DNA from: an uncultured Candidatus Peribacteria bacterium
GTDB lineage: Bacteria > Patescibacteriota > Gracilibacteria > UBA1369 > UBA12470
Length of the DNA: 43,532 nt
Assembly (NCBI GenBank): GCA_964603905.1
Contig: CAZRWH010000006.1
Coordinates: 3,224 to 46,755, forward strand
Reading direction: 5' to 3'
Position 1 is the first letter of the stretch. Each line of letters begins with the position of its first letter. Under the pieces are notes generated by a model. That model had not been told where the DNA came from. It saw only the letters and a program-made list of their open reading frames with translations, and did not search any database. Positions 4,499 to 32,288 of the stretch are shown in pieces. A program made the position numbers and the translations under genes.

Positions 4499-6730
4499 AT
4501 GAGAACCAACAACCGCCTAAACATAGTAATCATCATCGTTTTTTTGGTGACAGGAATCATAGGCCTACGACTATTCTGGCTACAGGTTGTATCTCACGGA
4601 CATTACAAAGAAATCGCTCAAAAAGAACACCAAGGCTACACCGAACTTCCGGCACGACGAGGTGAAATCCTAATCACAGACTACAATTCTGGCGAAGTTT
4701 TCAAACTAGCAACAAACACAACACTAGACCTCCTTTACGCCGATCCATACCTGATTGAAGACCCTGGAATGGTCGCAGAAACACTCGCGCCATTGCTTTT
4801 TAATCTAGAACAAGAAAAAGAGCTAGACGAAGAACGCGTCAAAGAAGAACTTGAAGAAGCATACGAAATCGAAAACGAAGAAATCCGGGAAGATGTATTA
4901 AAAACCATCTCATACAAAGACGACGGAGAACTTTTCGACGACTATCAAGACCGTTTAGAAGACCAATTAAGTGAAAAAATCCGCTCACAAATCCTTCTTG
5001 CCGAAGAGATGGACCAAGAAACAATCGACGCCCTCGTTACAGCCGATATAACAGGAGTGCTAGTAACTGAGCACGGAGATGTTTACGCATTCCCAAATGA
5101 AATCAGCAGCAAAAAAAGAACTGCAGAAGAACTAGCAGAAATATTCAAAGTAGACGCCGAAAACCTCGAAAGCATCCTAGAGGGAACCAACCGGTACACA
5201 GTACTCGACCGAAAACTTGACCCATCAGTGTCATCTGCAATCGATCAAATAATCGAAGAGGACGAAACAGGAGACTTCCTCGGAATACGAATGCTCGAAG
5301 AATATTACAGATACTATCCTGAAGAAGAGCTAGCGTCACAAATCCTTGGATACGTTAATTCCGCAGGTGTCGGACAGTATGGAATCGAAGGATTTTTCAA
5401 CTCATCACTAACCGGAAAAAAAGGTTACTTCACCTCGCAAATTGACGGTGTAGGAAAACAAATCACAGTAGGAGAAAGTGTTATCGAACCCGCAGAAGAC
5501 GGAGCAAATATCATGCTAACAATCGACAGAACAGTCCAACTCGAAGTCGAAAAACTTGTCGGAGCCGCAGTCGAAAGCTACCAAGCAGAAAGTGGGCAAG
5601 CCATCGTAATTGACCCCGAAACCGGCGCAATCATCGCAATGGCAAACTATCCAACATTCGACCCAAACCTTTACGGCCAAGTATATAACCTCCAAGAAAT
5701 CGAACTAACCGAAGAAGAGTGGGAACGCGTTTACAACATGGGAGATGAAGAAGATCCAGTCTGGTGGTTTTATACACAAATCGATCCCGACGAAAGAGTC
5801 AGAATCTTCCAAGACAGCGACGACCCTGAAACATGGTATTCATACGAAAACATGTACGGACCAGAGGTTTACAAAAACAAAACAATCCAAGCTATCTACG
5901 AGCCGGGATCAGTATTCAAACCAGTGGCAATGGCATCTGCGATAAACGCAAACGAAGTGACTCCAAATTCAACACACAATTGCACAGGACCACTCGAAGT
6001 TGACGAGTTCGAAATCCACACATTCGACGACACATACCACGGCATTGAAACAATGACAGAAGTACTAATCAATTCTTGCAACATCGGAATGGCATATGTC
6101 GCAGAACTTCTCGGCCGAAGCCTTTTTTACAGTTACATCCAAGCATTCGGATTTACAAAAAGAACAGACATACAACTGGACGGAGAAGAGTCAGGATACG
6201 TTGAATACTACGACGACTGGGCAAGATCAGAGCTGGTAACTCACGCCTTCGGACAAGGTATAACTGTAACACCGTTACAAATGGCTGTCGCTACAGCCGC
6301 ACTCGCAAACGACGGAGTTTTGATGCAACCATACATAGTCGAAAAAATAGAATACGCCGACGGATCTATCACAGAATACGAGCCTGAAATAATCAGACAA
6401 GCAGTCACAAAAGAGACAGCCGACCAAACAACAGCAATGCTAACAGCAGTCATCGAACAAGGAATTCCACAAGCACAAATAGACAATCATTACGTCGCAG
6501 GAAAATCAGGTACAGCCCAAACATACAAATGGGGAAAAGCACTTGAAGGAAAAGGTACAACAATCACATCATTCGTAGGATACGGCCCAATCGACGATCC
6601 ACAATTCGCAATTTTGGTTAAGTTCGACTATCCAAAAACAAACGAATGGGGAGCGAACACAGCAGGACCTGTCTTTGGGGATATAGCGGACTTCTTGTTT
6701 AGTTATTACAATATTCCGCCGGATAAGTAG
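4499..6730 (+). CDS. class B penicillin-binding protein (PBP2/FtsI-type peptidoglycan transpeptidase)
   Basis: N-terminal TM anchor. SVFK (SxxK, aa 471), SCN (SxN, aa 526) and KSGTA (KTG-type, aa 669) are in canonical order. Confidence 0.9.
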   Translation: MRTNNRLNIVIIIVFLVTGIIGLRLFWLQVVSHGHYKEIAQKEHQGYTELPARRGEILITDYNSGEVFKLATNTTLDLLYADPYLIEDPGMVAETLAPLLFNLEQEKELDEERVKEELEEAYEIENEEIREDVLKTISYKDDGELFDDYQDRLEDQLSEKIRSQILLAEEMDQETIDALVTADITGVLVTEHGDVYAFPNEISSKKRTAEELAEIFKVDAENLESILEGTNRYTVLDRKLDPSVSSAIDQIIEEDETGDFLGIRMLEEYYRYYPEEELASQILGYVNSAGVGQYGIEGFFNSSLTGKKGYFTSQIDGVGKQITVGESVIEPAEDGANIMLTIDRTVQLEVEKLVGAAVESYQAESGQAIVIDPETGAIIAMANYPTFDPNLYGQVYNLQEIELTEEEWERVYNMGDEEDPVWWFYTQIDPDERVRIFQDSDDPETWYSYENMYGPEVYKNKTIQAIYEPGSVFKPVAMASAINANEVTPNSTHNCTGPLEVDEFEIHTFDDTYHGIETMTEVLINSCNIGMAYVAELLGRSLFYSYIQAFGFTKRTDIQLDGEESGYVEYYDDWARSELVTHAFGQGITVTPLQMAVATAALANDGVLMQPYIVEKIEYADGSITEYEPEIIRQAVTKETADQTTAMLTAVIEQGIPQAQIDNHYVAGKSGTAQTYKWGKALEGKGTTITSFVGYGPIDDPQFAILVKFDYPKTNEWGANTAGPVFGDIADFLFSYYNIPPDK

Positions 6731-6902: not shown

Positions 6903-6915
6903 CTACATAAAGTTG

Positions 6916-6977
6916 AATTTTGGCGATAGGCGCGAGAACGTGTCTCGACTAGTGAAGAAGCCTATCGCCCAAAATTT
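6916..6977 (-). other. long imperfect hairpin 10 nt past the stop of the 853-aa gene, with the GTCTCGACTAG motif in its loop
   Basis: AATTTTGGCGATAGGC pairs with GCCTATCGC(C)CAAAATT (16 bp, 1-nt bulge). The 28-nt loop is gcgagaacgtGTCTCGACTAGtgaagaa. Confidence 0.6.
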
Positions 6978-6987
6978 CTTTCCCTAT

Positions 6988-9549
6988 CTATTCTGGAAGA
7001 GTCTCGTAAATCCCATTTGCACTCAACTCCGACGCAATCTTACGAAGAGAACTAATCTGATCTCTGTCTAATAATGCAGTGTCATGCTCCAATTGATTTA
7101 AAATACCCCTCTCTTCTTCTTTAGACTCAGCCTTGTCCAGCTTCTGCATATAAGCAATTACTTTTTTTATAACTGGAGAATCATGTTCCCACCCATTCCT
7201 CTGATATATCTCCTTTTTAGTCTCTTCAATCAACTCAGGAGCCACCTCCGCAACACGTCGAGCAATCTCGTCTGGACCAATTCCAGCAGAATCTTGCTCA
7301 CCCTCTTCCTCTTCCGCCTCTTCTTTCCAAAAATCACCTTCTCCCCTCAACATAGCACCAGTATCATCAGTCTCTCCTTCCGGCTGAACTTCTACAGCAA
7401 CTTCAACATTGCCATCTGAATCCATGCCAGCTCTATCCATAGTATAAGCAATGTCTTTCAATAAATCCTCGCTACTATCAAGATCAAACTTCACACAACG
7501 TTTTAACTGCTTCCTGTTAAGTTGATCCCCTGTAGAAAACCATACTTCACACCTTTTAGCACGAAGTAGTCCCTTTAGATCCTCAAAATCACACGAATCC
7601 ACGATAACCGTCTGGATACTATCAGGTAAAAAGTCCCAATTCTCGATAGTCCCTTGTATTTTGTGAATCCTCAAATAAAGCAAATTAGGGCATTGCTCAA
7701 CAACTTCCCGAACAACATCTTTATGACAATCTTCAAACACAAGACCGCCTACATTCTCTGCAACAGCAGCAATCTCTTCTATATCCTCTCTGAGTTTAAG
7801 GTGATACTTTAGATCCAGTCCACTGTCCCAAGTAATACCTTCCAACATCAATCTCTCACCCCCTCCAAGAAGCCCAAAGTTACGAAAATCAACACAATCC
7901 TGACCAAGAATTTCAACAAGCTCTTTCGGAATCTCTTTAAGTTCAGGAACTTTCAAAGCCATTGGAAGTGGCAATTTAGCCAAAATACGTTTGATAAGTC
8001 CTGGCTTATTAGGTTGAGTTAAATCTTTACGTCGATTCATCCAATTTCCAAAACGATCTCCGGTAATAATATCCAAAAGAACAGACATCGCACCTTTGAT
8101 TTCCTGAACAGGGTCTCCAGCACCACTAAACTGAGGCGCCGGCACCAAAGTTCTATCCGCTTGTTCAACGGGAACAACATGTTCAACCTCTCCAGAAACA
8201 TGCTCAGCATCAATTACTACAGGGTCAGCAGCAACTTCAGCCAGTTCAGGATCCGGCAAACCGGCAACAATTCTATCCAAAATATCAGGACGACTTGGAG
8301 AAACAGTATTTCTAGGCACAGCCCTTCTTTGAGGTGGCAATTCAAAAACCTGTTCAGCGCGTTCATCCGATTCAGAACCAGATGGATCTACCCTATACAA
8401 TGAAATAGGACTCGGGAACTCATGATCTGAAGCCTCTTCTAGATCACCTTCTGCAGGCGGAAAGAACACAGGTATATCAAACTCAGAGCTTGAAACCTCT
8501 TCTGCATCTTCGGTAGCAGGCCTCGCAGGAGGTGCCAGCACAGGAAACTCAGGCAATTCAACATCAAGTTGCAAAACCGCATTAATATCTCGAATCGCAC
8601 GAGCCGCCCTATAACGAACTTCTCGGGATTCACCTGACTTCTTTTCAGATTCTAGTCGCGCCAATTCTTGAGCTATAGCCTCTTTTGTATCCAAGCTAAG
8701 ACGAACTAGAACACCATAAATTTTACTAATTTTCGCCCTCTCAACACGCTCAATTTCATCCACATCAACTGCCTGACCATCAAGCAAATAAGTATCTTTT
8801 GCGACTCCAACATTAAACCTCAGTTCGCTCACAGCTTTCTCTTGATCAAAATGACTTTGAAGCAATCCATGTTGAAGCAATGTACACGATTGAGCCAATG
8901 CATGCAGCCCCATTTGAACCAAACTATCAGCGGCTGTGCGCTCCTCTTGAGTCATAACAGGGTCAGAACCATCCGACGGATTAACAGCCACATGATTCAT
9001 TAAGTTAAGATGAGCCAAACAATGAACAAGATCCTTAACTTGATCCCCTTTTCTCAATCGAAGAAGGTTCATAAGTAGATCTCGAGCCATTAATTGCGAT
9101 TGATAGAAGTCTTTGTTAGCCAAAACAGCTTTAGAAGCATCATCAGAAGCATTCATGCCCGTTGGCAAACCGTTGCAACCCTCAAACATATCCGCATTTT
9201 CGCGATAAACACTAGTAATAATAGTCATAAGCGCTTTATGAATCAGAGCAGCTTTTCTTTGCATTGGAATATCACGACTAGATTCACGAGCTACTGAAGG
9301 CACCAATGCAAAAGTAGGCATTGCAAACTGCCTTTTCAAGCTCTCATTCGCATCATAAACCTCTCCTCCAATAAGATGCACACCCGCATAAACGCTGCGC
9401 GATTCAGGAGTAGTAGAATCTTTTTCTTCTCGCTCAGCTTTAAAGAAACCCATGTATTCCAGAGCTTCGGCAAGCTCTCGGGTAATAGGGCCTCTTTCAT
9501 CCGTAGATTCAGGACCATTACCACCCATTGTTGAAATGCTTCTAGACAT
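6988..9549 (-). CDS. large hypothetical protein (853 aa) with Pro/acidic spacer and Cys-containing LRR-like region
   Basis: Hydrophilic N-terminus. The Pro/acidic region spans aa ~335-480 and includes SSEFDIP. CPNLLYLRIHKIQGTIENWDFLPDSIQTVIVDSCDFEDLKGLL lies at nt ~7540-7932. Confidence 0.8.
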   Translation of the reverse strand: MSRSISTMGGNGPESTDERGPITRELAEALEYMGFFKAEREEKDSTTPESRSVYAGVHLIGGEVYDANESLKRQFAMPTFALVPSVARESSRDIPMQRKAALIHKALMTIITSVYRENADMFEGCNGLPTGMNASDDASKAVLANKDFYQSQLMARDLLMNLLRLRKGDQVKDLVHCLAHLNLMNHVAVNPSDGSDPVMTQEERTAADSLVQMGLHALAQSCTLLQHGLLQSHFDQEKAVSELRFNVGVAKDTYLLDGQAVDVDEIERVERAKISKIYGVLVRLSLDTKEAIAQELARLESEKKSGESREVRYRAARAIRDINAVLQLDVELPEFPVLAPPARPATEDAEEVSSSEFDIPVFFPPAEGDLEEASDHEFPSPISLYRVDPSGSESDERAEQVFELPPQRRAVPRNTVSPSRPDILDRIVAGLPDPELAEVAADPVVIDAEHVSGEVEHVVPVEQADRTLVPAPQFSGAGDPVQEIKGAMSVLLDIITGDRFGNWMNRRKDLTQPNKPGLIKRILAKLPLPMALKVPELKEIPKELVEILGQDCVDFRNFGLLGGGERLMLEGITWDSGLDLKYHLKLREDIEEIAAVAENVGGLVFEDCHKDVVREVVEQCPNLLYLRIHKIQGTIENWDFLPDSIQTVIVDSCDFEDLKGLLRAKRCEVWFSTGDQLNRKQLKRCVKFDLDSSEDLLKDIAYTMDRAGMDSDGNVEVAVEVQPEGETDDTGAMLRGEGDFWKEEAEEEEGEQDSAGIGPDEIARRVAEVAPELIEETKKEIYQRNGWEHDSPVIKKVIAYMQKLDKAESKEEERGILNQLEHDTALLDRDQISSLRKIASELSANGIYETLPE

Positions 9550-9579
9550 AATTTCAGATTAAAATTAAGAAAGAAGCCG

Positions 9580-9608
9580 ATTCTACACAGAAATCGTGCT
9601 TTTGTCAA
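9580..9608 (-). promoter_or_regulatory. sigma70-type promoter of the 853-aa gene, TTGACA-N17-TAGAAT
   Basis: The reverse complement of 9580-9608 is TTGACAaaagcacgatttctgtgTAGAAT. The -10 box lies 30 nt from the ATG. Confidence 0.65.
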
Positions 9609-9781
9609 GCGTGCCGGATCAAAAAAACACTACAACACCATGAAATTCAAAAAAGTCGCGTTTTGTCCCGGGACATTTCGCGACAATTCACTGTTTTATT
9701 GCATAATCTGCACGTCGAAAAAACACGTCTCGACTAGCGCAAGAGCCGTTTTGCCCTCGGGCAAAACACCATCCCAAAAAC

Positions 9782-9899
9782 CTTAGCTTTTTTTGTTAAG
9801 CGAAAAAGTATCAGCAGTGCTACTATTTTCTCCTGATCGTAAGATCAAGAGAAAGAGTAAGCGATGCCACGCAGGAGCTAAACAAAAAAATCCCCTAAG
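9782..9899. other. copy A of a repeated structured element: a long hairpin enclosing a ~58-nt conserved core
   Basis: Arms TTTTTTTGTTAAGC (9788-9801) and GCTAAACAAAAAAA (9877-9890), plus outer CTTAG/CTAAG. Core 9819-9877 is about 85% identical to 30514-30571. The right arm overlaps the stop codon of the 104-aa gene. Confidence 0.6.
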
Positions 9900-10209
9900 C
9901 AGTACCACTAAGATACAACTCCCTAAAATGCGCAAAAGCTTGAGCAAAAACCTGTTGATAATTTGGAAGATTCTCTCGAATATACTGCTCAACTTGTTCA
10001 GCACTCATGTCATCAGCCTCAATTCTCCCCTGGAAATCAGCTCTTTTATCCTCCGGCAAAGCCTCAAGAACAGAAAGCATCAATTTATCTTCAAGACGAA
10101 TATAAAGGTCTTGAATCATTTGTTCACGTTCAGCTTCAGGAAGCTCTGACATACCTGCCTCAACAAGTAATCCTTCAAGAAATTTCTTAATATTTGGATC
10201 CATTTCCAT
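9895..10209 (-). CDS. small acidic helical hypothetical protein (104 aa)
   Basis: ATG-initiated ORF 56 nt downstream of the giant gene stop, on the same strand. Confidence 0.6.
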   Translation of the reverse strand: MEMDPNIKKFLEGLLVEAGMSELPEAEREQMIQDLYIRLEDKLMLSVLEALPEDKRADFQGRIEADDMSAEQVEQYIRENLPNYQQVFAQAFAHFRELYLSGTA

Positions 10210-10265
10210 ATTTTTTGTGGTTTAAATTCGTTAAGAGTTTAGGTTAAAAAGGAATTAAAGTAAAT

Positions 10266-13200
10266 TTATTCACCTGGGACTTCGTCAGTACTATTTTCCA
10301 TCCATCCAGTAGCACCATCCGGCATACTCAATTCTGCATGATCATGCTCCGGTTCAACACCTTCTACCGGAACCTCGTCAGTTCCAGAAGCAACAGGAGG
10401 TGGCGCCAAATCAGGAGTTTTCACTGGTGGAAGATCTTCAATTCGAGTAGTCCCAACCGGCTCAGGAAGTTCTAAATCATCTTCGGTCACCTCTTCTGGT
10501 TCTGGTTCAGGAAGGTCTAGATCGTCTGCCTCAACCTTTGTCAAAACCTCTTCTTGTTCAGCAACCTCAAGATTTGGAACTTTTCCTTCAAACGCCATTG
10601 CTTGACCATTGCTTGCTATAACACTCTTCAGGTTTGGCCATCTATCACGCAAAGAAATAATGTCACCGTCAGGGACCTGTGTACCTGCGACGTTAAGCTC
10701 TTCAAGCAAAGGACAGTTATAAAGAGAAGTCATATCAACAAGATCTGGCGAATCACTCAGGTCCGCTTTTTTCAATCCAGAACAGTTCCTCAAAGACCCA
10801 ACATCTTTCACTCCAGAAAGATCTATCTCAGAAACATGAGCCGCGGTTTCAACAAAACCTGTAAGATACACACTCAACATTTCCCATTTCATGTTATCTG
10901 TAGCAGTTACTCTATAGGTACCATCTTCCAAAAGCTCTATGTTTTTCATGCCAACAACTTTTTCAATAAGGGAGATTGCACTTTTATCAATTCTAGGATC
11001 TGTCTTTTCTCTTTCAGAAATTGCAAACCCTCCATGATCCTCAATTTGCTCAGGAGTTTTTCCAACACTAGCAAGTGAAGGATTTACCTCCAACATATCT
11101 GTTCTCTCCGTAGCACCAATATCCAAATCGTGAAAATCCGGAACTTCAGGACCTTGCTTCTCAATTTGCAAAGAATTAATGCCAGTAGGATCAGTATCTT
11201 CAAGGACTTCCCAATCAGTGTCGATAACATCATCCATTTCAATTTGAGGAACAGGTCTAGCAGGCAAAAGATTGTATCCTTCTAAAACAGTATCATTAGC
11301 ATGATATTCATCTTTAAATCCAAACCGAACAATATCACTAGTAAAAGCTCCATTATTCTCGACAACAACACGCCTCAACAACGTAAATGTTCTCAAAACC
11401 TCCTTAACAAACTCCTCTTCAGACGCCAACTCTTCTCCTAAATAAACCTCAGTCACATAAGTCATAGATTGAAACAACTCTTTCTGACGAGCACGATACT
11501 CCGTCATAAATGTTTGCATTTGATCTTTATTCCTAAACACAATTCCAAGCTGCGACTCCGCAACCTCAATAATATCTTCGACAGAGTCAGCAATCGAAGC
11601 CGGAATACCATATTTGTCTTCCAAAACTTTGGTGTCAACTGATCCAAACCCATTAACAACCTCTTGTTGCTGTTCAAAGGTTTTACCAGGGTCTGTAACT
11701 TCTTCTTTATCTTGTTTTTCTTCGGGCTCTGGATAAACCTCTGGCGCCTCTTTAGGATCAAAAGTAGACGGATCACCTATCCTATTAATTTCAGGGTTTG
11801 GTGCTTTTTGTTCAGCAACTTCTTCCTCGGCAGGGGTGTCTTCAGTTCCAAGATTAACAGGATCTGGAGCATCAGCAACATCCAAAGGAACAGTTGGTTC
11901 AGACACAATATCAGAAACCGGCTGTGTAGACTCAACAATCGATTCCCCAGAAATACTTTCTGGGTCAATAGTTGGCTCAGAAGGCACCTCATCAGCACCA
12001 CCCAGTTGCGCTTGAAGTTCAGAAACATCAAAAATCGCTGTATCTCCACCATGAGTAGGAGGAGCAGAACCGACACCCAAAGATTGCGACATTGCAGATT
12101 TAGCACCTTCACTACTGCTAGAAGAGTAAGGGATATATCCAGCGAATATTTTTCGCCCACTATCCTCTTCAAACAAATGACCACCCGCCCCATTCAAAAG
12201 CAAAGGATAATCAACACGGAAAACCGCACCTTCAGCCCCCTGAGGAGAAGAAATACCTTCAACCTCAACATCTGAAGCTCCTTTCTCAAACTGTTCAGGC
12301 AAATCACCTTCAAGAGTGTCATACAAAGCAACATGCCTATACTCATATCCTAACTCTGCCGCCATTTTGGTAAACGTTTCAATATAACTATCTCCCTCGA
12401 CAACAGTTCTATTTATCTTGTCAGCCAAAGGTGGAAGCTCATTAGGCATCGCCTCTCTAACTATTTGCATAAATGGAGCAATTTTATATCCAAAAACTCT
12501 CAAAAGATTTCTCTTGAAAGTATTTACAACCTCTTCGGTTTTTTCTGGAGAAATATATCTACCACCACCTACAAATTCACCACTCCTAGAAATATTAAGC
12601 TCTGCTGCAGAATGCTCACGTATTCCTTTTAGTAGCACACTTAAAGCATTCGCTGCCTCACCAGAAAGAGGCATAAGTTCATGACCAGGATCATTACGAT
12701 GCTCAATCACAAAACCAATAAAACTCAACGCTTGTACCATCTCCTCAAAAGCTGCCTCGGCGCCGTTAGTTAATTGCTCAAGAAGCTCACCATAGACCGC
12801 CCAATCAACATATGGATCAAGTCCTTTCTGGCTTTCAACTGCAACAATATTTTTAGAAAGAGTAACCGCCTTATCAATATGAGTAAAATAATCAATAAGA
12901 AACGGCGAATCAATAATAGCCTTCAAAGCTTCTCGAACCTCAACATTAACAACACACGCCTCTAGAACCCCTGCATCATCCGGAAGCAACGACTCACGAA
13001 CATTCTTCGGCAATGTAAATTCATCTCCAGCTCTCTCCGGCATTTCAAGTGCAGTAGCAGACAAATTCAAAACCCAAGAATCATCCTGGTCAGGCTCTCC
13101 ATCAACAAGCTCCATCGGCTCACCGGTAAGAGCCTCATGTTCTCTTACAGCAGCTTCAACAGGCCCAATTTGCACAGGAACAAGCTCTTCAAGCAAAGGC

Positions 13201-28823: not shown

Positions 28824-30320
28824 ATGGCACCAAACAAACCAGGGGGGAAACCGGACGGACACACTCGCATGGGAACAACAAAAATGGCAGGCAGAGACCT
28901 TAATGACGCAACTCAAGCACTTGATGAAGCAGACTCACTAGAAGCTGCATGGGCATCATTAATGAACGACGGCGAAACACCCAACACACCTGTACACAAC
29001 CCACGCGCGCCAAAAGATTTTGGTTTTGTAGGTGAAGAAAACAACACACCAGCAATCCAAAGCGGAGCCGACTTAATCTCACACGCAGCCCAAGAAGGAA
29101 CTACCCGACTAGAAACTGGAGATCTAGAGATGAGAAACGCCAACGAAACACTTTTAGCAAAACTCAACAAGCTTAGAGGTCCTGGACAAATTTTCGAAGA
29201 CGTGAGCGACGAAGGTATCGAGTTAATTTCAAAATTCGCAAGAACAACCGACATTTTCGAAGGAGATGTCGTAATTGGAACTGAAAAAACCTTCCAAGAT
29301 GCTGCACTCAGAGAAACCGGAATGGCCATTATTTTGAGTGACCAATTCAATATTGAAACACCAAGAGGAAACCTTCCAATAAAACAAGGTAGAACGCTTG
29401 GAGAACGAGGATTCCGTGGAGAAGAACGAGCAAACGAAGTAAAAGCAAAAACACCAGGAACGCTAATGCTGATAGATTCGAACCTCAAAGGACTTAGGTC
29501 TATGGGATTATCTATTGAAGACTCAAACGCAATTCGCCTTAACATCCTTAGAAACAGCTACCTAGAAAGCGCAAACAACAACTTGAGTTTCGTAGACCCT
29601 AGATTCAAGCCAGTTCTAGCAAGAGCATTGCAACCCCTGACAAGAATTCTTCAAGACGAAATTCTCACAACCAACGAACAACGCAGAAGACAGCTAGTCG
29701 ACCCCAAAAGACTTCCACATAGCAAATTAGTACCGAGAGAAGACAAGTACGAAGCACTTATAGTCTTAGATGGAAACTACCAAGGCCCTATTGTACAAGT
29801 TAGAAACAACGAATCAGGGGAAATAATCAGCGAAATCCTAGCACCTACAGTTCTATTCATTCTTAGGGCAGCAGGAATGCCAGTTGATCAGCTTTCTGCA
29901 CAACTTTTTGTAGAGCAAAAATTCTTCGCAACACCAGTAGAAGTAAGAGGATCAGACAGACCAGCAGACGAACAAGAAAAAGTTATCGAGATTCTGGAAA
30001 CAATCGAAAACACCCTTCTGAGCATAACAAATAAAACCTATGACGGATGGCTAAAAGAGCGAGAACTACGCAGAGCAGAAAGAGCGGTAGGTCAACAACC
30101 TAGGAGAAAAAAGAAGCCTGCAAAAAAGAAACCAGAAGCCCCAGAAAGCAAAGGGTTAGTCCAATCATTCGTTGATGACCAACGCGCACAAGCGCAAGAA
30201 CTTGTTGAATCTGCCAATAAAGGAACAATGTCATCGTGGCTTAGAACACAATGGGAAAGGTCTACAATCAAAGCAGCAATCAAGGCAATCGACGACTCAG
30301 ATAAACCGAGACGGAGATAG
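28824..30320 (+). CDS. hypothetical protein (498 aa) with cNMP-binding-like signature and a Lys/Arg-rich tail
   Basis: GERGFRGEERANEVKAKTPGTLMLI parallels CRP [20 protein letters not shown] (nt ~29181-29498). The C-terminus contains PRRKKKPAKKKPE. The gap from the upstream gene is 11 nt. Confidence 0.45.
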   Translation: MAPNKPGGKPDGHTRMGTTKMAGRDLNDATQALDEADSLEAAWASLMNDGETPNTPVHNPRAPKDFGFVGEENNTPAIQSGADLISHAAQEGTTRLETGDLEMRNANETLLAKLNKLRGPGQIFEDVSDEGIELISKFARTTDIFEGDVVIGTEKTFQDAALRETGMAIILSDQFNIETPRGNLPIKQGRTLGERGFRGEERANEVKAKTPGTLMLIDSNLKGLRSMGLSIEDSNAIRLNILRNSYLESANNNLSFVDPRFKPVLARALQPLTRILQDEILTTNEQRRRQLVDPKRLPHSKLVPREDKYEALIVLDGNYQGPIVQVRNNESGEIISEILAPTVLFILRAAGMPVDQLSAQLFVEQKFFATPVEVRGSDRPADEQEKVIEILETIENTLLSITNKTYDGWLKERELRRAERAVGQQPRRKKKPAKKKPEAPESKGLVQSFVDDQRAQAQELVESANKGTMSSWLRTQWERSTIKAAIKAIDDSDKPRRR

Positions 30321-30359
30321 TGTTAGTGAACAGTGGACAGTGGGCAGTGAACAGTGGAT
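30318..30359. repeat. heptamer array TAGTGTT AGTGAAC AGTGGAC AGTGGGC AGTGAAC AGTGGAT
   Basis: Six phase-locked units starting on the TAG stop of the 498-aa gene. This is the reverse complement of the CACTGTY family. Confidence 0.9.
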
Positions 30360-30480
30360 TCTTGGTGTACGATTTTTGCATACTAAAAATTTCCACCGCA
30401 GGAGGCTTCTTAATTACAAGCCACGAACTAACCTGCTCGTTTATACTCGCTTGCGGGTGGAGAGCTCCATCCTTACGTTA

Positions 30481-30587
30481 AGGTTTTAAATTAATTAAAC
30501 GAACATCTGCAACGCCACTATTTCATCCTGATCGTGAGATCAAGAGGAAGAGTAAGTGAAGCCGTTCGGAGAATTAATTTAAAACCT
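30481..30587. other. copy B of the repeated structured element: a 16-bp hairpin enclosing the conserved core
   Basis: AGGTTTTAAATTAATT (30481-30496) pairs perfectly with AATTAATTTAAAACCT (30572-30587). The core is 30514-30571. The right arm overlaps the stop codon of the ABC transporter gene. Confidence 0.65.
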
Positions 30588-32237
30588 AATAACTACATCG
30601 AACATATCAAGCAACGACAGACGATGCACAGAAGCAATAATCGTCTTGTCTTTGTATTTCCTGAATACGCCTTTTAGAATCGCCCGCTCATTTTCCATAT
30701 CAACGCTACTTGTAGGTTCGTCCATCAGAAGGATATCACTTTTCTCACCAGCAAGAAGTCCACGAGCAAGGGCAAGACGTTGCTTTTCCCCACCACTGAG
30801 ATTAACTCCTTTCTCGGCAATATTTGTTTCGAGTCCGGCAGGAAGACGCTTAAGAACAGATTTGAACCTAGCCAACCCCAGAACTTCTAAGATTTTTTTA
30901 CGAGGAATTTTAAGTCCCATTGAGACGTTGTATTCGATTGTATTTTCAAAAATTTCAGGCTCCTGAGGCATCAAAGTTGTCATGTTAGAAAGGTGCAAAA
31001 CACCGTGAGGCAGTTTTTTGCCATCAACATACAAATCACCTTTTGAGGCCTGAAAAATCCCACGCAAAAGTCCGAGAACCGTGCTTTTACCACAGCCACT
31101 TTCACCAACAAAAGCAATGCGTGCACCTCGAGGAATATCAAGTGAAAAATTCTTGATTTGATGCTTGATTTTCTTTTCATCTTCATAAGTAAAATATAGG
31201 CCTTCAACTCGAAGATTCTTCCATTTTTTAGGGGCACGTGCATTAACTTTGGCACCCATTTTGTCGTAATCCCGGAAGATGTTCTCGGCGGAAGCTACAG
31301 ATGCATCTTGCTCAACAATTTGACTGTATTTCCAAGCAAACTGATAGAAATTATGCCCAATCCTATCCATGTAAGCATAAAGCGTATACAAAGTACCAAT
31401 AACGATAACCTCGTCCGATTTCAAAGTACTAAAAATCTCCCAAGAAATAACACTGATAGACATAACCGTAATCCAGAAAGTCACACTAGCCCATTTGATC
31501 TCATTCACAATTGTTTTCTTCTTGAAAAGCTTGAAAGGAACATAGTGCCTTCTCATGGATTCCTTCACCGCAGCACTTTCAAAACGCATCGTCAAAACCG
31601 TTATTACATTCGACAAATAGTCATGAATCGCAGAAGCCGTTTTGTTGTACATTGAGTGAAGCCTCTTTGCGTATTTGAAGAGAACAATGTCGAACAAAAT
31701 AACAAAAGTAAAAGCCAAAGTTGCAGCAACAAGGACCGCAATACCGGCATAAGCTTTGATGAAGAATAGAAGAAAAAACGATCCAACAAGAGTCACAATG
31801 ATTTCAACAAGAACAAATATTTCCTCCGAAAAATCCATAAAAGCAAGGGCCGCACGATTCAATTTATCAATGTTTTTTCCAGAATGATTTCCACGATGCC
31901 ACTCAGCAGGAAGCCCAAAAAGAGCTTTCAATCCCGCCTCTCTATAATTCCCCATTACCCTATAAGCAAACACGCTTTCAAAAATTCTAGACACACCATG
32001 AAAAACCCAAAAAAGCACAGGCAAAGTACCAAGAATAATGAGCAGAAAAATAATTCTACGCCCCATATCTTCCCCACCAGTCTGCAGTACATCCAAAATC
32101 TTACCGAAAACATAAGGCTCAAAAAGAATAATTGTATTAGCAGTAATCGACAAAAACAGGAATAAAAACATGTTTTTTCTATGCCCCTGGGCATATTTCC
32201 ATGTATTCCTCAACATTGATGTAATTGGATTTCTCAT
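30579..32237 (-). CDS. ABC exporter, fused permease and ATPase (MsbA/type I exporter-like)
   Basis: N-terminal 6-TM region. Walker A is GESGCGKST, the ABC signature is LSGGEKQRLALARGL and Walker B is ILLMDEPTSSVD. The ATG at 32237 is preferred because the track's TTG at 32288 lies inside the -35 box. Confidence 0.9.
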   Translation of the reverse strand: MRNPITSMLRNTWKYAQGHRKNMFLFLFLSITANTIILFEPYVFGKILDVLQTGGEDMGRRIIFLLIILGTLPVLFWVFHGVSRIFESVFAYRVMGNYREAGLKALFGLPAEWHRGNHSGKNIDKLNRAALAFMDFSEEIFVLVEIIVTLVGSFFLLFFIKAYAGIAVLVAATLAFTFVILFDIVLFKYAKRLHSMYNKTASAIHDYLSNVITVLTMRFESAAVKESMRRHYVPFKLFKKKTIVNEIKWASVTFWITVMSISVISWEIFSTLKSDEVIVIGTLYTLYAYMDRIGHNFYQFAWKYSQIVEQDASVASAENIFRDYDKMGAKVNARAPKKWKNLRVEGLYFTYEDEKKIKHQIKNFSLDIPRGARIAFVGESGCGKSTVLGLLRGIFQASKGDLYVDGKKLPHGVLHLSNMTTLMPQEPEIFENTIEYNVSMGLKIPRKKILEVLGLARFKSVLKRLPAGLETNIAEKGVNLSGGEKQRLALARGLLAGEKSDILLMDEPTSSVDMENERAILKGVFRKYKDKTIIASVHRLSLLDMFDVVIRF

Positions 32238-32259
32238 ATTTGATATAATTCGAGAGAGG

Positions 32260-32288
32260 ATTATGCCACAAAACCACGCCCCAGGCAA
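32260..32288 (-). promoter_or_regulatory. sigma70-type promoter of the ABC exporter, TTGCCT-N17-TGgCATAAT
   Basis: The reverse complement of 32260-32288 is TTGCCTggggcgtggttttgtggCATAAT. Confidence 0.55.

Follow-up and report, generated by a model that had tools for sequence, protein, structure and literature searches.

The window analysed here, a stretch of 43,532 nt from an uncultured Candidatus Peribacteria bacterium, carries two copies (A and B) of a long hairpin, which are members of a small, previously undescribed family of interspersed long-hairpin repeats that is confined to a single lineage of CPR bacteria resembling Peregrinibacteria. An individual element is built of an ∼110 nt stem-loop and a tail of 20–90 nt that is able to carry nested short modules. 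Judging from sequence comparison, we consider it probable that these hairpins are a new structured interspersed repeat of the REP/ERIC/BOX kind, and that in transcripts of the upstream gene they make up the 3′ end and would form a long stem-loop there. To our knowledge, almost nothing has been established for the non-coding DNA, terminators and mobile elements of the CPR/Patescibacteria, whose genomes are small and compact. The family described below indicates that short folded modules make up the spacers behind CPR genes and undergo copying, homogenisation and deletion at a pace visible between co-existing strains, that such modules reach into stop codons and are able to shorten proteins (as for an ABC exporter), and that hairpin repeats break metagenome assemblies, as contigs end there. 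It also offers an entry point to transcript ends in uncultured CPR bacteria, as well as to the machinery that moves ORF-less hairpins.

Two copies of a long hairpin at gene ends

Just two places in the window, 9832–9861 and 30527–30556 (both on the + strand), match the 30-mer CCTGATCGTRAGATCAAGAGRAAGAGTAAG, with a chance expectation of none in 100 shuffles. A preliminary description of this DNA had reported a shared core with ∼85% identity, and we found 43–44 of 51 aligned positions to be identical between the two copies. In keeping with the long hairpins that it noted, both A (9782–9899) and B (30478–30590) fold into a single long hairpin on either strand, with energies of −35.7 to −37.8 kcal/mol and z-scores of −4.3 to −7.3, equalled by 0 of 200 shuffles. 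The apical stem with GUAA and GUGA loops (+ strand) was recovered, as was the one U:A to C:G double change between A and B, next to which copy B carries a mismatch. The proposed core of ∼58 nt is indeed conserved, but its extent was underestimated: it covers ∼85 nt, and conserved sequence runs ∼20–90 nt beyond the distal arm.

Copy A lies on the minus strand, its gene-proximal outer arm CTTAGGGGATTTTTTTGTTTAGC (9877–9899, 5′ in gene sense) including the TAG stop codon (9895–9897) of a 104-aa DUF5663 gene. This arm is followed by the conserved inner hairpin of ∼75 nt (9802–9876), which contains the apical 12-bp stem (9827–9838/9843–9854) and its loop (9839–9842; GUAA on the + strand, UUAC in gene sense), and then by the distal outer arm (9782–9801, minus strand; GCTTAACAAAAAAAGCTAAG in gene sense), directly 3′ of which stands GUUUUUG. 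Positions 9788–9821 recur on at least four other contigs of the sequencing run from which the window derives (X1), diverging beyond. Copy B, placed between convergent genes, is organized in the same way on the minus strand: a gene-proximal outer arm AGGTTTTAAATTAATT (30572–30587), in which AGG TTT are the conserved Arg–Phe codons of an ABC exporter and where the TAA stop codon of that gene lies (30579–30581), the conserved inner hairpin (30497–30571) with its apical stem (30522–30533/30538–30549) and loop (30534–30537; GUGA on the + strand, UCAC in gene sense), and a distal outer arm (30481–30496; AATTAATTTAAAACCT in gene sense), directly followed by UAACGUAAGG. Minus-strand stop codons thus lie in or at the outer arm of both hairpins, as had been noted.

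A conserved inner hairpin on a variable outer stem

In an alignment of four copies (A, B and the additional copies C and E, introduced below) in gene sense, the consensus is a 37-bp hairpin with 97.9% paired cells and with double-sided changes at 18 pairs, so that the single U:A to C:G change is one of many, and the pairing of the structured element that had been postulated is backed by numerous double changes. Four of five measures of structure were reached by 0 of 500 shuffles and the fifth (further pair types) by 1 of 500, and slid alignments gave 35–51% paired cells. The hairpin (∼110 nt, 34–43% G+C) contains an inner part of ∼75–85 nt that is conserved and an outer stem of 14–16 bp that differs between copies and stays paired, identity between copies being 21–64% in the outer stem versus 51–87% in the inner part. 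A conserved tail box (..RTGGWGC..) is located 3′ of the hairpin. The flanking arms had been called unrelated; they do differ between copies, but are T-rich/A-rich variants of one theme that are alike within subfamilies, with GGTTTTAA...ATT common to the arms of B and C, and ...TTTGTT..T(T/A)GC common to those of A, D, E and the copy of a related species. The outer arms, perfect yet fast-changing, would fit quasi-palindrome correction by template switching (PMC8794818).

With regard to the strand, the helix read on the gene-sense (minus) strand contains 16 G·U pairs versus one A·C, and the sense-strand fold is better by 1.0–1.6 kcal/mol in four of four copies, the consensus folding energies of the two strands being nearly equal (−32.7 vs −33.1 kcal/mol). 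Moreover, the GNRA loop is not general, as the loop of E comprises 10 nt and that of the copy in the related species (L007) reads AGAU. Together, these observations moderately favour the gene-sense strand, either as RNA or as single-stranded DNA, and disfavour a plus-strand small RNA. Of the two options left by the preliminary description, a 3′-UTR module of the minus-strand genes is the better-fitting one, whilst a plus-strand small RNA capped by a GNRA loop is not borne out, given the loops of E and L007 and the G·U pairs on the gene-sense strand. No known RNA family had been recognised in the element, and Rfam likewise gave none: a tRNA was the sole match in the whole window, and between 9600 and 10000 the best scores were 6–18 bits against thresholds of 40–72 (E-values 1.7–9.3).

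Further copies behind unrelated genes

A search of 185,579 species genomes returned one true match, on contig CAZCGN010000010 (L002/L005), and one chance match. This contig and CAZCGN010000011 (L006) belong to MAG GCA_964498285.1, which is labelled as a Methanosarcinales archaeon. As the relatives of the CYTH gene and its neighbours on CAZCGN010000010 are Peregrinibacteria, and as that contig comes from sequencing run X1, as does the window, we read it as a mis-binned piece of the window's population; both L002/L005 and L006 are probably mis-binned. L005 and L006 are two strain variants of one locus, both derived from run X1 and both with genes whose relatives are Peregrinibacteria.

Two copies were located on L005: copy C, whose proximal arm holds the CYTH stop codon, and copy E, which directly follows the stop of a gene encoding a 1405-aa surface protein and has an A-like middle, a different tip and arms of its own. 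Copy D, with its own 14-bp arms, was found on a 533-nt Logan contig from run X1. In all, the comparison covered five full copies, a partial one and a relic. Estimates from Logan contig depth put the copy number in run X1 at ∼2 for the B/C type and at least 6 for the A/D/E type. The copies sit behind unrelated genes (DUF5663, ABC exporter, CYTH and the 1405-aa surface protein), each on or at most ∼5 nt from a stop codon and in gene-sense orientation.

No match to the element was obtained in the plasmid collection, and the two matches in viral contigs were both due to chance and lay in coding DNA. Two scans of JGI metagenomes gave zero matches, the second with a pattern too strict to catch the copy of the related species, and in runs X2–X20 the element was not found, a heptamer array (see below) alone being in common. 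The best relatives of the proteins encoded here were named Peregrinibacteria, Peribacteria or Patescibacteria, and no transposase or recombinase was present among the 24 proteins scanned (window plus L002/L005; 43.5 kb + ∼6.5 kb).

Occupied and unoccupied loci in related species

In a syntenic species (L007/L018; 65% identity for CYTH, 66% for the ABC exporter and 45% for the downstream membrane protein), the covariance model matched with 46–74 bits at 5 nt past the CYTH stop codon, with a heptamer array next, and a relic without the tip lies 13 nt past the stop codon of the ABC exporter. The same two loci are thus occupied in two species with ∼65% protein identity, which could mean long-term selection for a function. 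At the sequence level, B and C share 87% identity, versus 60–65% with their positional counterparts, and the two copies of the relative have the arm sequence GTCGGTTTT(T)GTTATTT in common at two different loci; hence, copies cluster by genome and not by locus. Such clustering would be produced either by concerted evolution or by repeated colonisation.

Behind an exporter that is more closely related the element is missing, the spacer after the ABC stop codon being 16 nt, and copy A is not present in two orthologous DUF5663 spacers. One hairpin-less spacer, after an 81%-identical DUF5663 orthologue (L023, 3322–3416), holds TAGCACTGC and CTTTTTTGTTAAGC, short matches to the middle and arm of A that may be a relic or a source of arm sequence. 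Additionally, a further Peregrinibacteria genome (L010) has a weaker relative behind a giant gene of the RHS type. There, after a gene for a 2019-aa protein with RHS/SpvB domains (5165–5335, minus strand), the box TCGCTAGGGCATCG occurs three times, first inside a 15-bp hairpin; it is distantly related to the GGCATCG/GGCTTCR box of the hairpin family.

Altered gene ends

The ABC exporter (30579–32288) ends in ...DVVIRF, and all ten closest homologues run 10–14 residues further. The proximal arm of B starts exactly at the AGG TTT Arg–Phe codons and supplies the TAA, and that of C starts at the CGG TTT of CYTH, where a native RF end is present in 9 of 14 homologues. In the related species the arms start with (GTC)GGTTTT, 5 and 13 nt past the stop codons. 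It would appear from these junctions that GGTTT microhomology between arm start and Arg–Phe codons joined the arm to the genes, by deletion or insertion. The lost 3′ end of the exporter was also sought behind B, where nothing convincing appeared in three frames.

Probable loss of hairpins in a co-existing strain

L006 shows scattered base differences from L005 in the aligned regions and is without C (152 nt), E (∼136 nt) and one hairpin of a second family (∼104 nt). An independent Logan contig also skips C, with a 9-nt overlap at the joint and a depth of 54 as compared with 77–81 for the filled form, so that both alleles were present in one sample (X1). The gap at C is flanked by two copies of TTTTGATTT (a 9-nt direct repeat), and the proximal arm is kept in L006. 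This direct repeat measures 9–12 nt, and its score was reached by 11 of 2000 shuffles; direct repeats at the ends of A, B and E are at chance level. The idea that the proximal arm recurs as a direct repeat 3′ of every copy was likewise discarded, since only C rises above chance.

As CYTH homologues often end in Arg–Phe–stop, and as the tail GGTTTTGATTT is identical in L005 and the related species, we infer that the sequence at C before the element read ..CGG TTT TGA TTT TTA GG. Relative to this, L006 has an extra 6 nt, AATTTT, which fits a deletion footprint. At the E site, the GAAGT...GGGC of the element remains in L006. Because of such residues, the absence of C, E and the second-family hairpin is read as the result of slipped hairpin deletions, and deletion would be the direction of all three L005/L006 differences. 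For long palindromes, deletion is the expected direction. No clean empty site was found between these strains, the L006 sites resembling deletion footprints. The preliminary description had tied its structured RNA to the existence of further copies and to the lack of an Rfam match, both of which we observed; it had named a MITE with target-site duplications as a refutation, and this is borne out in part, the further copies behaving as an interspersed repeat that sits behind unrelated genes, varies in presence among co-existing strains and has a 9-nt direct repeat at one junction.

Comparison with known repeats

Copies A–E and that of the relative, the conserved fold and the loss in a strain place the family within the broad class of structured interspersed intergenic repeats of bacteria. 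Like the REP/BIME sequences of Enterobacteria and Pseudomonas (REPINs, via RAYT), its members are hairpin interspersed repeats in spacers, probably transcribed, just past genes, possibly form a 3′ barrier in mRNA and are found in mosaics with other short modules. REPs, however, are 20–40 nt long, G+C-rich and carry a GTAG/CGTC tag (PMC3733652), whereas the present hairpins measure ∼110 nt and have an A/T-rich stem, a conserved inner part of ∼75 nt and a low copy number; there is no GTAG/CGTC tag at the stem foot of A or B, and no RAYT (Y1 HUH) gene is found among the scanned window proteins. ERIC (IRU) and the pneumococcal BOX are likewise imperfect palindromes of 100–150 nt in transcribed intergenic DNA that vary in presence between strains and have no known mobilising machinery, and the modular build of BOX (boxA, B and C) is comparable to that of hairpin, tail box and module 2 (see below). 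No sequence relationship to these is known for the present family, Rfam, the only library searched, having given no match; it differs by overlapping stop codons, by its conserved tip and variable stem, and by being found only in a Peregrinibacteria-like lineage.

MITEs (Correia of Neisseria, bcr1 of the Bacillus cereus group) are also short, ORF-less folded repeats that lie behind unrelated genes and can alter gene ends. MITEs derive from an IS, and their terminal inverted repeats are conserved and their target-site duplications of fixed length. The hairpin family is least conserved in its terminal arms (21–64% identity), which speaks against MITE-type terminal repeats. A flanking repeat is supported at C only, and no parent IS transposase is encoded in the window or L005. 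Rickettsia palindromic elements (RPE) resemble the family in being palindromes of ∼100–150 nt that are able to join coding sequence, as does the arm of B, which supplies a stop codon and replaces the exporter C-terminus. RPEs are nevertheless in frame and translated within proteins, whilst the present hairpins occupy the extreme 3′ end of a gene and stop translation there. By the terminator scan, the G+C-rich stem with a directly following U tract that marks an intrinsic terminator is found at neither A nor B. Integron attC sites (conserved R''/L'' and L'/R' ends, GTTRRRY) do not fit either, GTTAAGC being present in A only, with no integrase in the window and a conserved centre between variable ends, and the fixed, guide-paired 4–5-nt target of IS200/IS605-derived PATEs is lacking, as the bases before the proximal arm differ.

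Origin and possible function

In the reading that we prefer, an interspersed repeat transcribed with the upstream gene, the element would spread or be homogenised within the genome via copy-and-paste or gene conversion, driven by a function supplied in trans or by template switching during replication, and might fuse with gene ends where the GGTTT of its arm start meets Arg–Phe codons. The element is probably a 3′-UTR stem-loop: transcripts of the upstream gene would carry it as their 3′ UTR, with the 37-bp stem-loop acting as a 3′-end barrier or terminator-type structure. A simple terminator scan detected none at A or B, B having no U tract and an A/T-rich stem base. With the stop codon enclosed in the stem, termination of translation may in addition be damped by the hairpin, in the manner of stop-proximal REP sequences. 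In E. coli, REP sequences close to stop codons can affect translation.

A dedicated, selected cis-acting RNA of the 3′ UTR (a lineage-specific terminator, stabiliser or protein-binding site), inherited vertically and with the likeness of its copies owed to gene conversion, would account for the occupancy of the CYTH and ABC-exporter 3′ ends in both the window population and its ∼65%-identical relative, for the shared order of stop codon, hairpin, heptamer array and next gene, for the strong compensatory support with gene-sense G·U bias, and for the gene-sense placement of all copies on or near a stop codon. We nevertheless regard it as a rather unlikely explanation, since three hairpins are missing in a co-existing strain that makes up ∼40% of the population, the tip is swapped wholesale in E and deleted in the ABC-locus copy of the relative, the neighbouring genes are functionally unrelated, the ABC locus of a closer relative and two spacers orthologous to that of A are without the element, and B has cost the exporter 10–14 conserved residues. 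Equally directed at function, the convergent plus-strand small RNA gene with a GNRA cap that the preliminary description favoured could draw on the GUAA/GUGA loops in A, B and C and on a + strand hairpin that is about equally stable; it is the least probable of the readings weighed here and barely credible, as the loops of E (10 nt) and the relative (AGAU) are GNRA on neither strand, sense-strand G·U pairs become C·A mismatches in the apical stem of the + strand, and on that strand neither copy has a promoter-like site on its 5′ side (the sole sites, both 9/12, lie ∼75 nt upstream of the hairpin of A and downstream of B) or a terminator on its 3′ side.

The remaining explanations concern mobility. 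The conserved apical fold may serve as the recognition module of a CPR enzyme or of a replication-linked process that copies the hairpins between gene ends and homogenises them within a genome, with the freely varying stem remade by intrastrand template switching and the family forming a branch of a CPR-wide class of mobile elements; we consider this speculative and unlikely. If it were true, mobile elements that keep their tip while the stem varies freely would shape gene 3′ ends and could rewrite C-termini. Less probable still, and in our view distinctly unlikely, is that an enzyme with its gene elsewhere in the genome, either a recombinase or a single-strand transposase of the HUH type, uses the hairpins as REPIN/RAYT-, IS200/IS605-PATE- or attC-like substrates, recognising the apical fold as folded single-stranded DNA. 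A conserved tip on a variable stem, a strand asymmetry that is equally compatible with folded single-stranded DNA, the occupation of new loci with no enzyme encoded in cis, and gain and loss at the hairpin are all consistent with such a substrate; yet no gene of this kind was found in 43.5 kb + ∼6.5 kb, the upstream bases (CTTAG, TTATT, GATGC and GCTGTA) contain no common 4–5-nt target motif, the copies are ∼3 times the length of REPs, and the pattern of attC, with conserved ends and a variable centre, is the opposite of that seen here. Finally, the hairpin might build itself, its distal arm being made at each site as an inverted copy of the end of the host gene, which would give the element its target in both sense and antisense form. 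At C, all 16 nt of the proximal arm, native Arg–Phe–stop codons included, are present in the element-less strain and the insert carries the perfect complement of that arm plus the 9–12-nt direct repeat, and at B the distal arm pairs with native AGGTTT codons. Different loci, however, have arm ends in common (GGTTTTAA/TTAAAACC in B and C; GTCGGTTTT(T)GTTATTT at the two loci of the relative), from which we take the arms to travel with the element; furthermore, the additional AATTTT left in L006 resembles a deletion footprint, the direct repeats at A, B and E are at chance level, and correction of quasi-palindromes by template switching (PMC8794818) suffices for perfect arms. Self-building is accordingly very improbable, and templating of the distal arm on the host gene end was rejected as the main reading on account of the arms common between loci and the footprint-like L006. 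Insertion into the loop of a pre-existing terminator was likewise rejected, as the element-less strain at C keeps only one arm.

Surroundings of the hairpins and other repeat modules

The tail of A (9700–9781, minus strand) contains a GGGATGGTG box that is common to B, C, E and the relative, as well as a small hairpin, GTTTTGCCCGAGGGCAAAAC (9748–9767, minus strand), and a motif of the second family, CTAGTCGAGACGTGTT (9722–9737, minus strand). The most terminator-like site downstream of A is a palindrome, GTCGCGAAATGTCCCGGGACAAAACGCGAC, followed by T6 (9649–9684, minus strand), and beyond it lies a promoter-like TTGACA-17-TAGAAT (11/12; 9580–9608, minus strand) for the next gene (853 aa, start 9549). 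Owing to these two sites downstream, copy A is probably placed inside a 3′ UTR, ahead of the real terminator. The palindrome is itself a repeat, as an exact 32-nt copy of it ends another, 10.6-kb contig of run X1. The palindrome with its T6 resembles a true terminator of the giant-gene operon.

In the tails of both B and C a separate short repeat is nested, termed module 2 (GGAGCTCTCCACCCGCAAGCGAGTATAAACGAGCAGGTT in gene sense; 30425–30469, minus strand). Its 30-mer at 30430–30459 is identical in L005, and its summed depth in X1 is ∼1400 versus 128–175 for the flanks, i.e. ∼8–10 times higher. Module 2 also adjoins heptamer arrays that have no hairpin. A role for module 2 as a promoter or structured RNA was rejected, there being no promoter-like site and a fold z-score of only −0.4 to −1.4. 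The tail box of B, GAAGCCTCCTGCGGTGGAAATTTTTAG (30383–30409, minus strand), matches CCTCTGCGGTGGTTTTGAATG directly 3′ of the element in the relative (L007/L018). Past element B lies a tandem array of the heptamer CACTGTY (30318–30359), and the order of stop codon, hairpin and heptamer array recurs in L005 and in L018. Arrays are thus found 3′ of the element at three loci in two species (window 30318–30359; L005 5848–5870; L018 12140–12370), the unit differing each time (CACTGTY, AGGCGCA and GAATGTC/GAGATTC). The CACTGTY array is the sole part of 30300–30700 that is common to many unrelated metagenomes. The arrays had first suggested that the DNA came from a heterocyst-forming cyanobacterium (STRR, small dispersed repeats), a reading that was dropped in view of the Peregrinibacteria, Peribacteria and Patescibacteria relatives of the proteins.

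The second hairpin family is represented in the window 13 nt past the stop codon of the 853-aa gene (6914–6977, minus strand), where a 16-bp stem, AATTTTGGCGATAGGC/GCCTATCGCCAAAATT, surrounds TTCTTCACTAGTCGAGACACGTTCTCGC. The family is characterized by the loop TTCACTAGTCGAGACACGTTCTYGC in a stem of 15–16 bp, 5–13 nt past stop codons. Its sister copy on L005 (6257–6322) is not present in the co-existing strain L006; in the larger interval 6257–6360, this copy and the next hairpin, GTTTTTGCCGGTGGCAAAAAC, are both missing there. As a whole, short repeated modules and heptamer arrays combine into mosaics in the spacers of this organism. With respect to the strains present in the sample, the depth of X1 contigs is 53–57 at 8900–10700, a region with copy A and the first part of the giant gene, and 128–175 at 30380–30640 (copy B); it seems that just one of the co-existing strains carries the giant-gene region.
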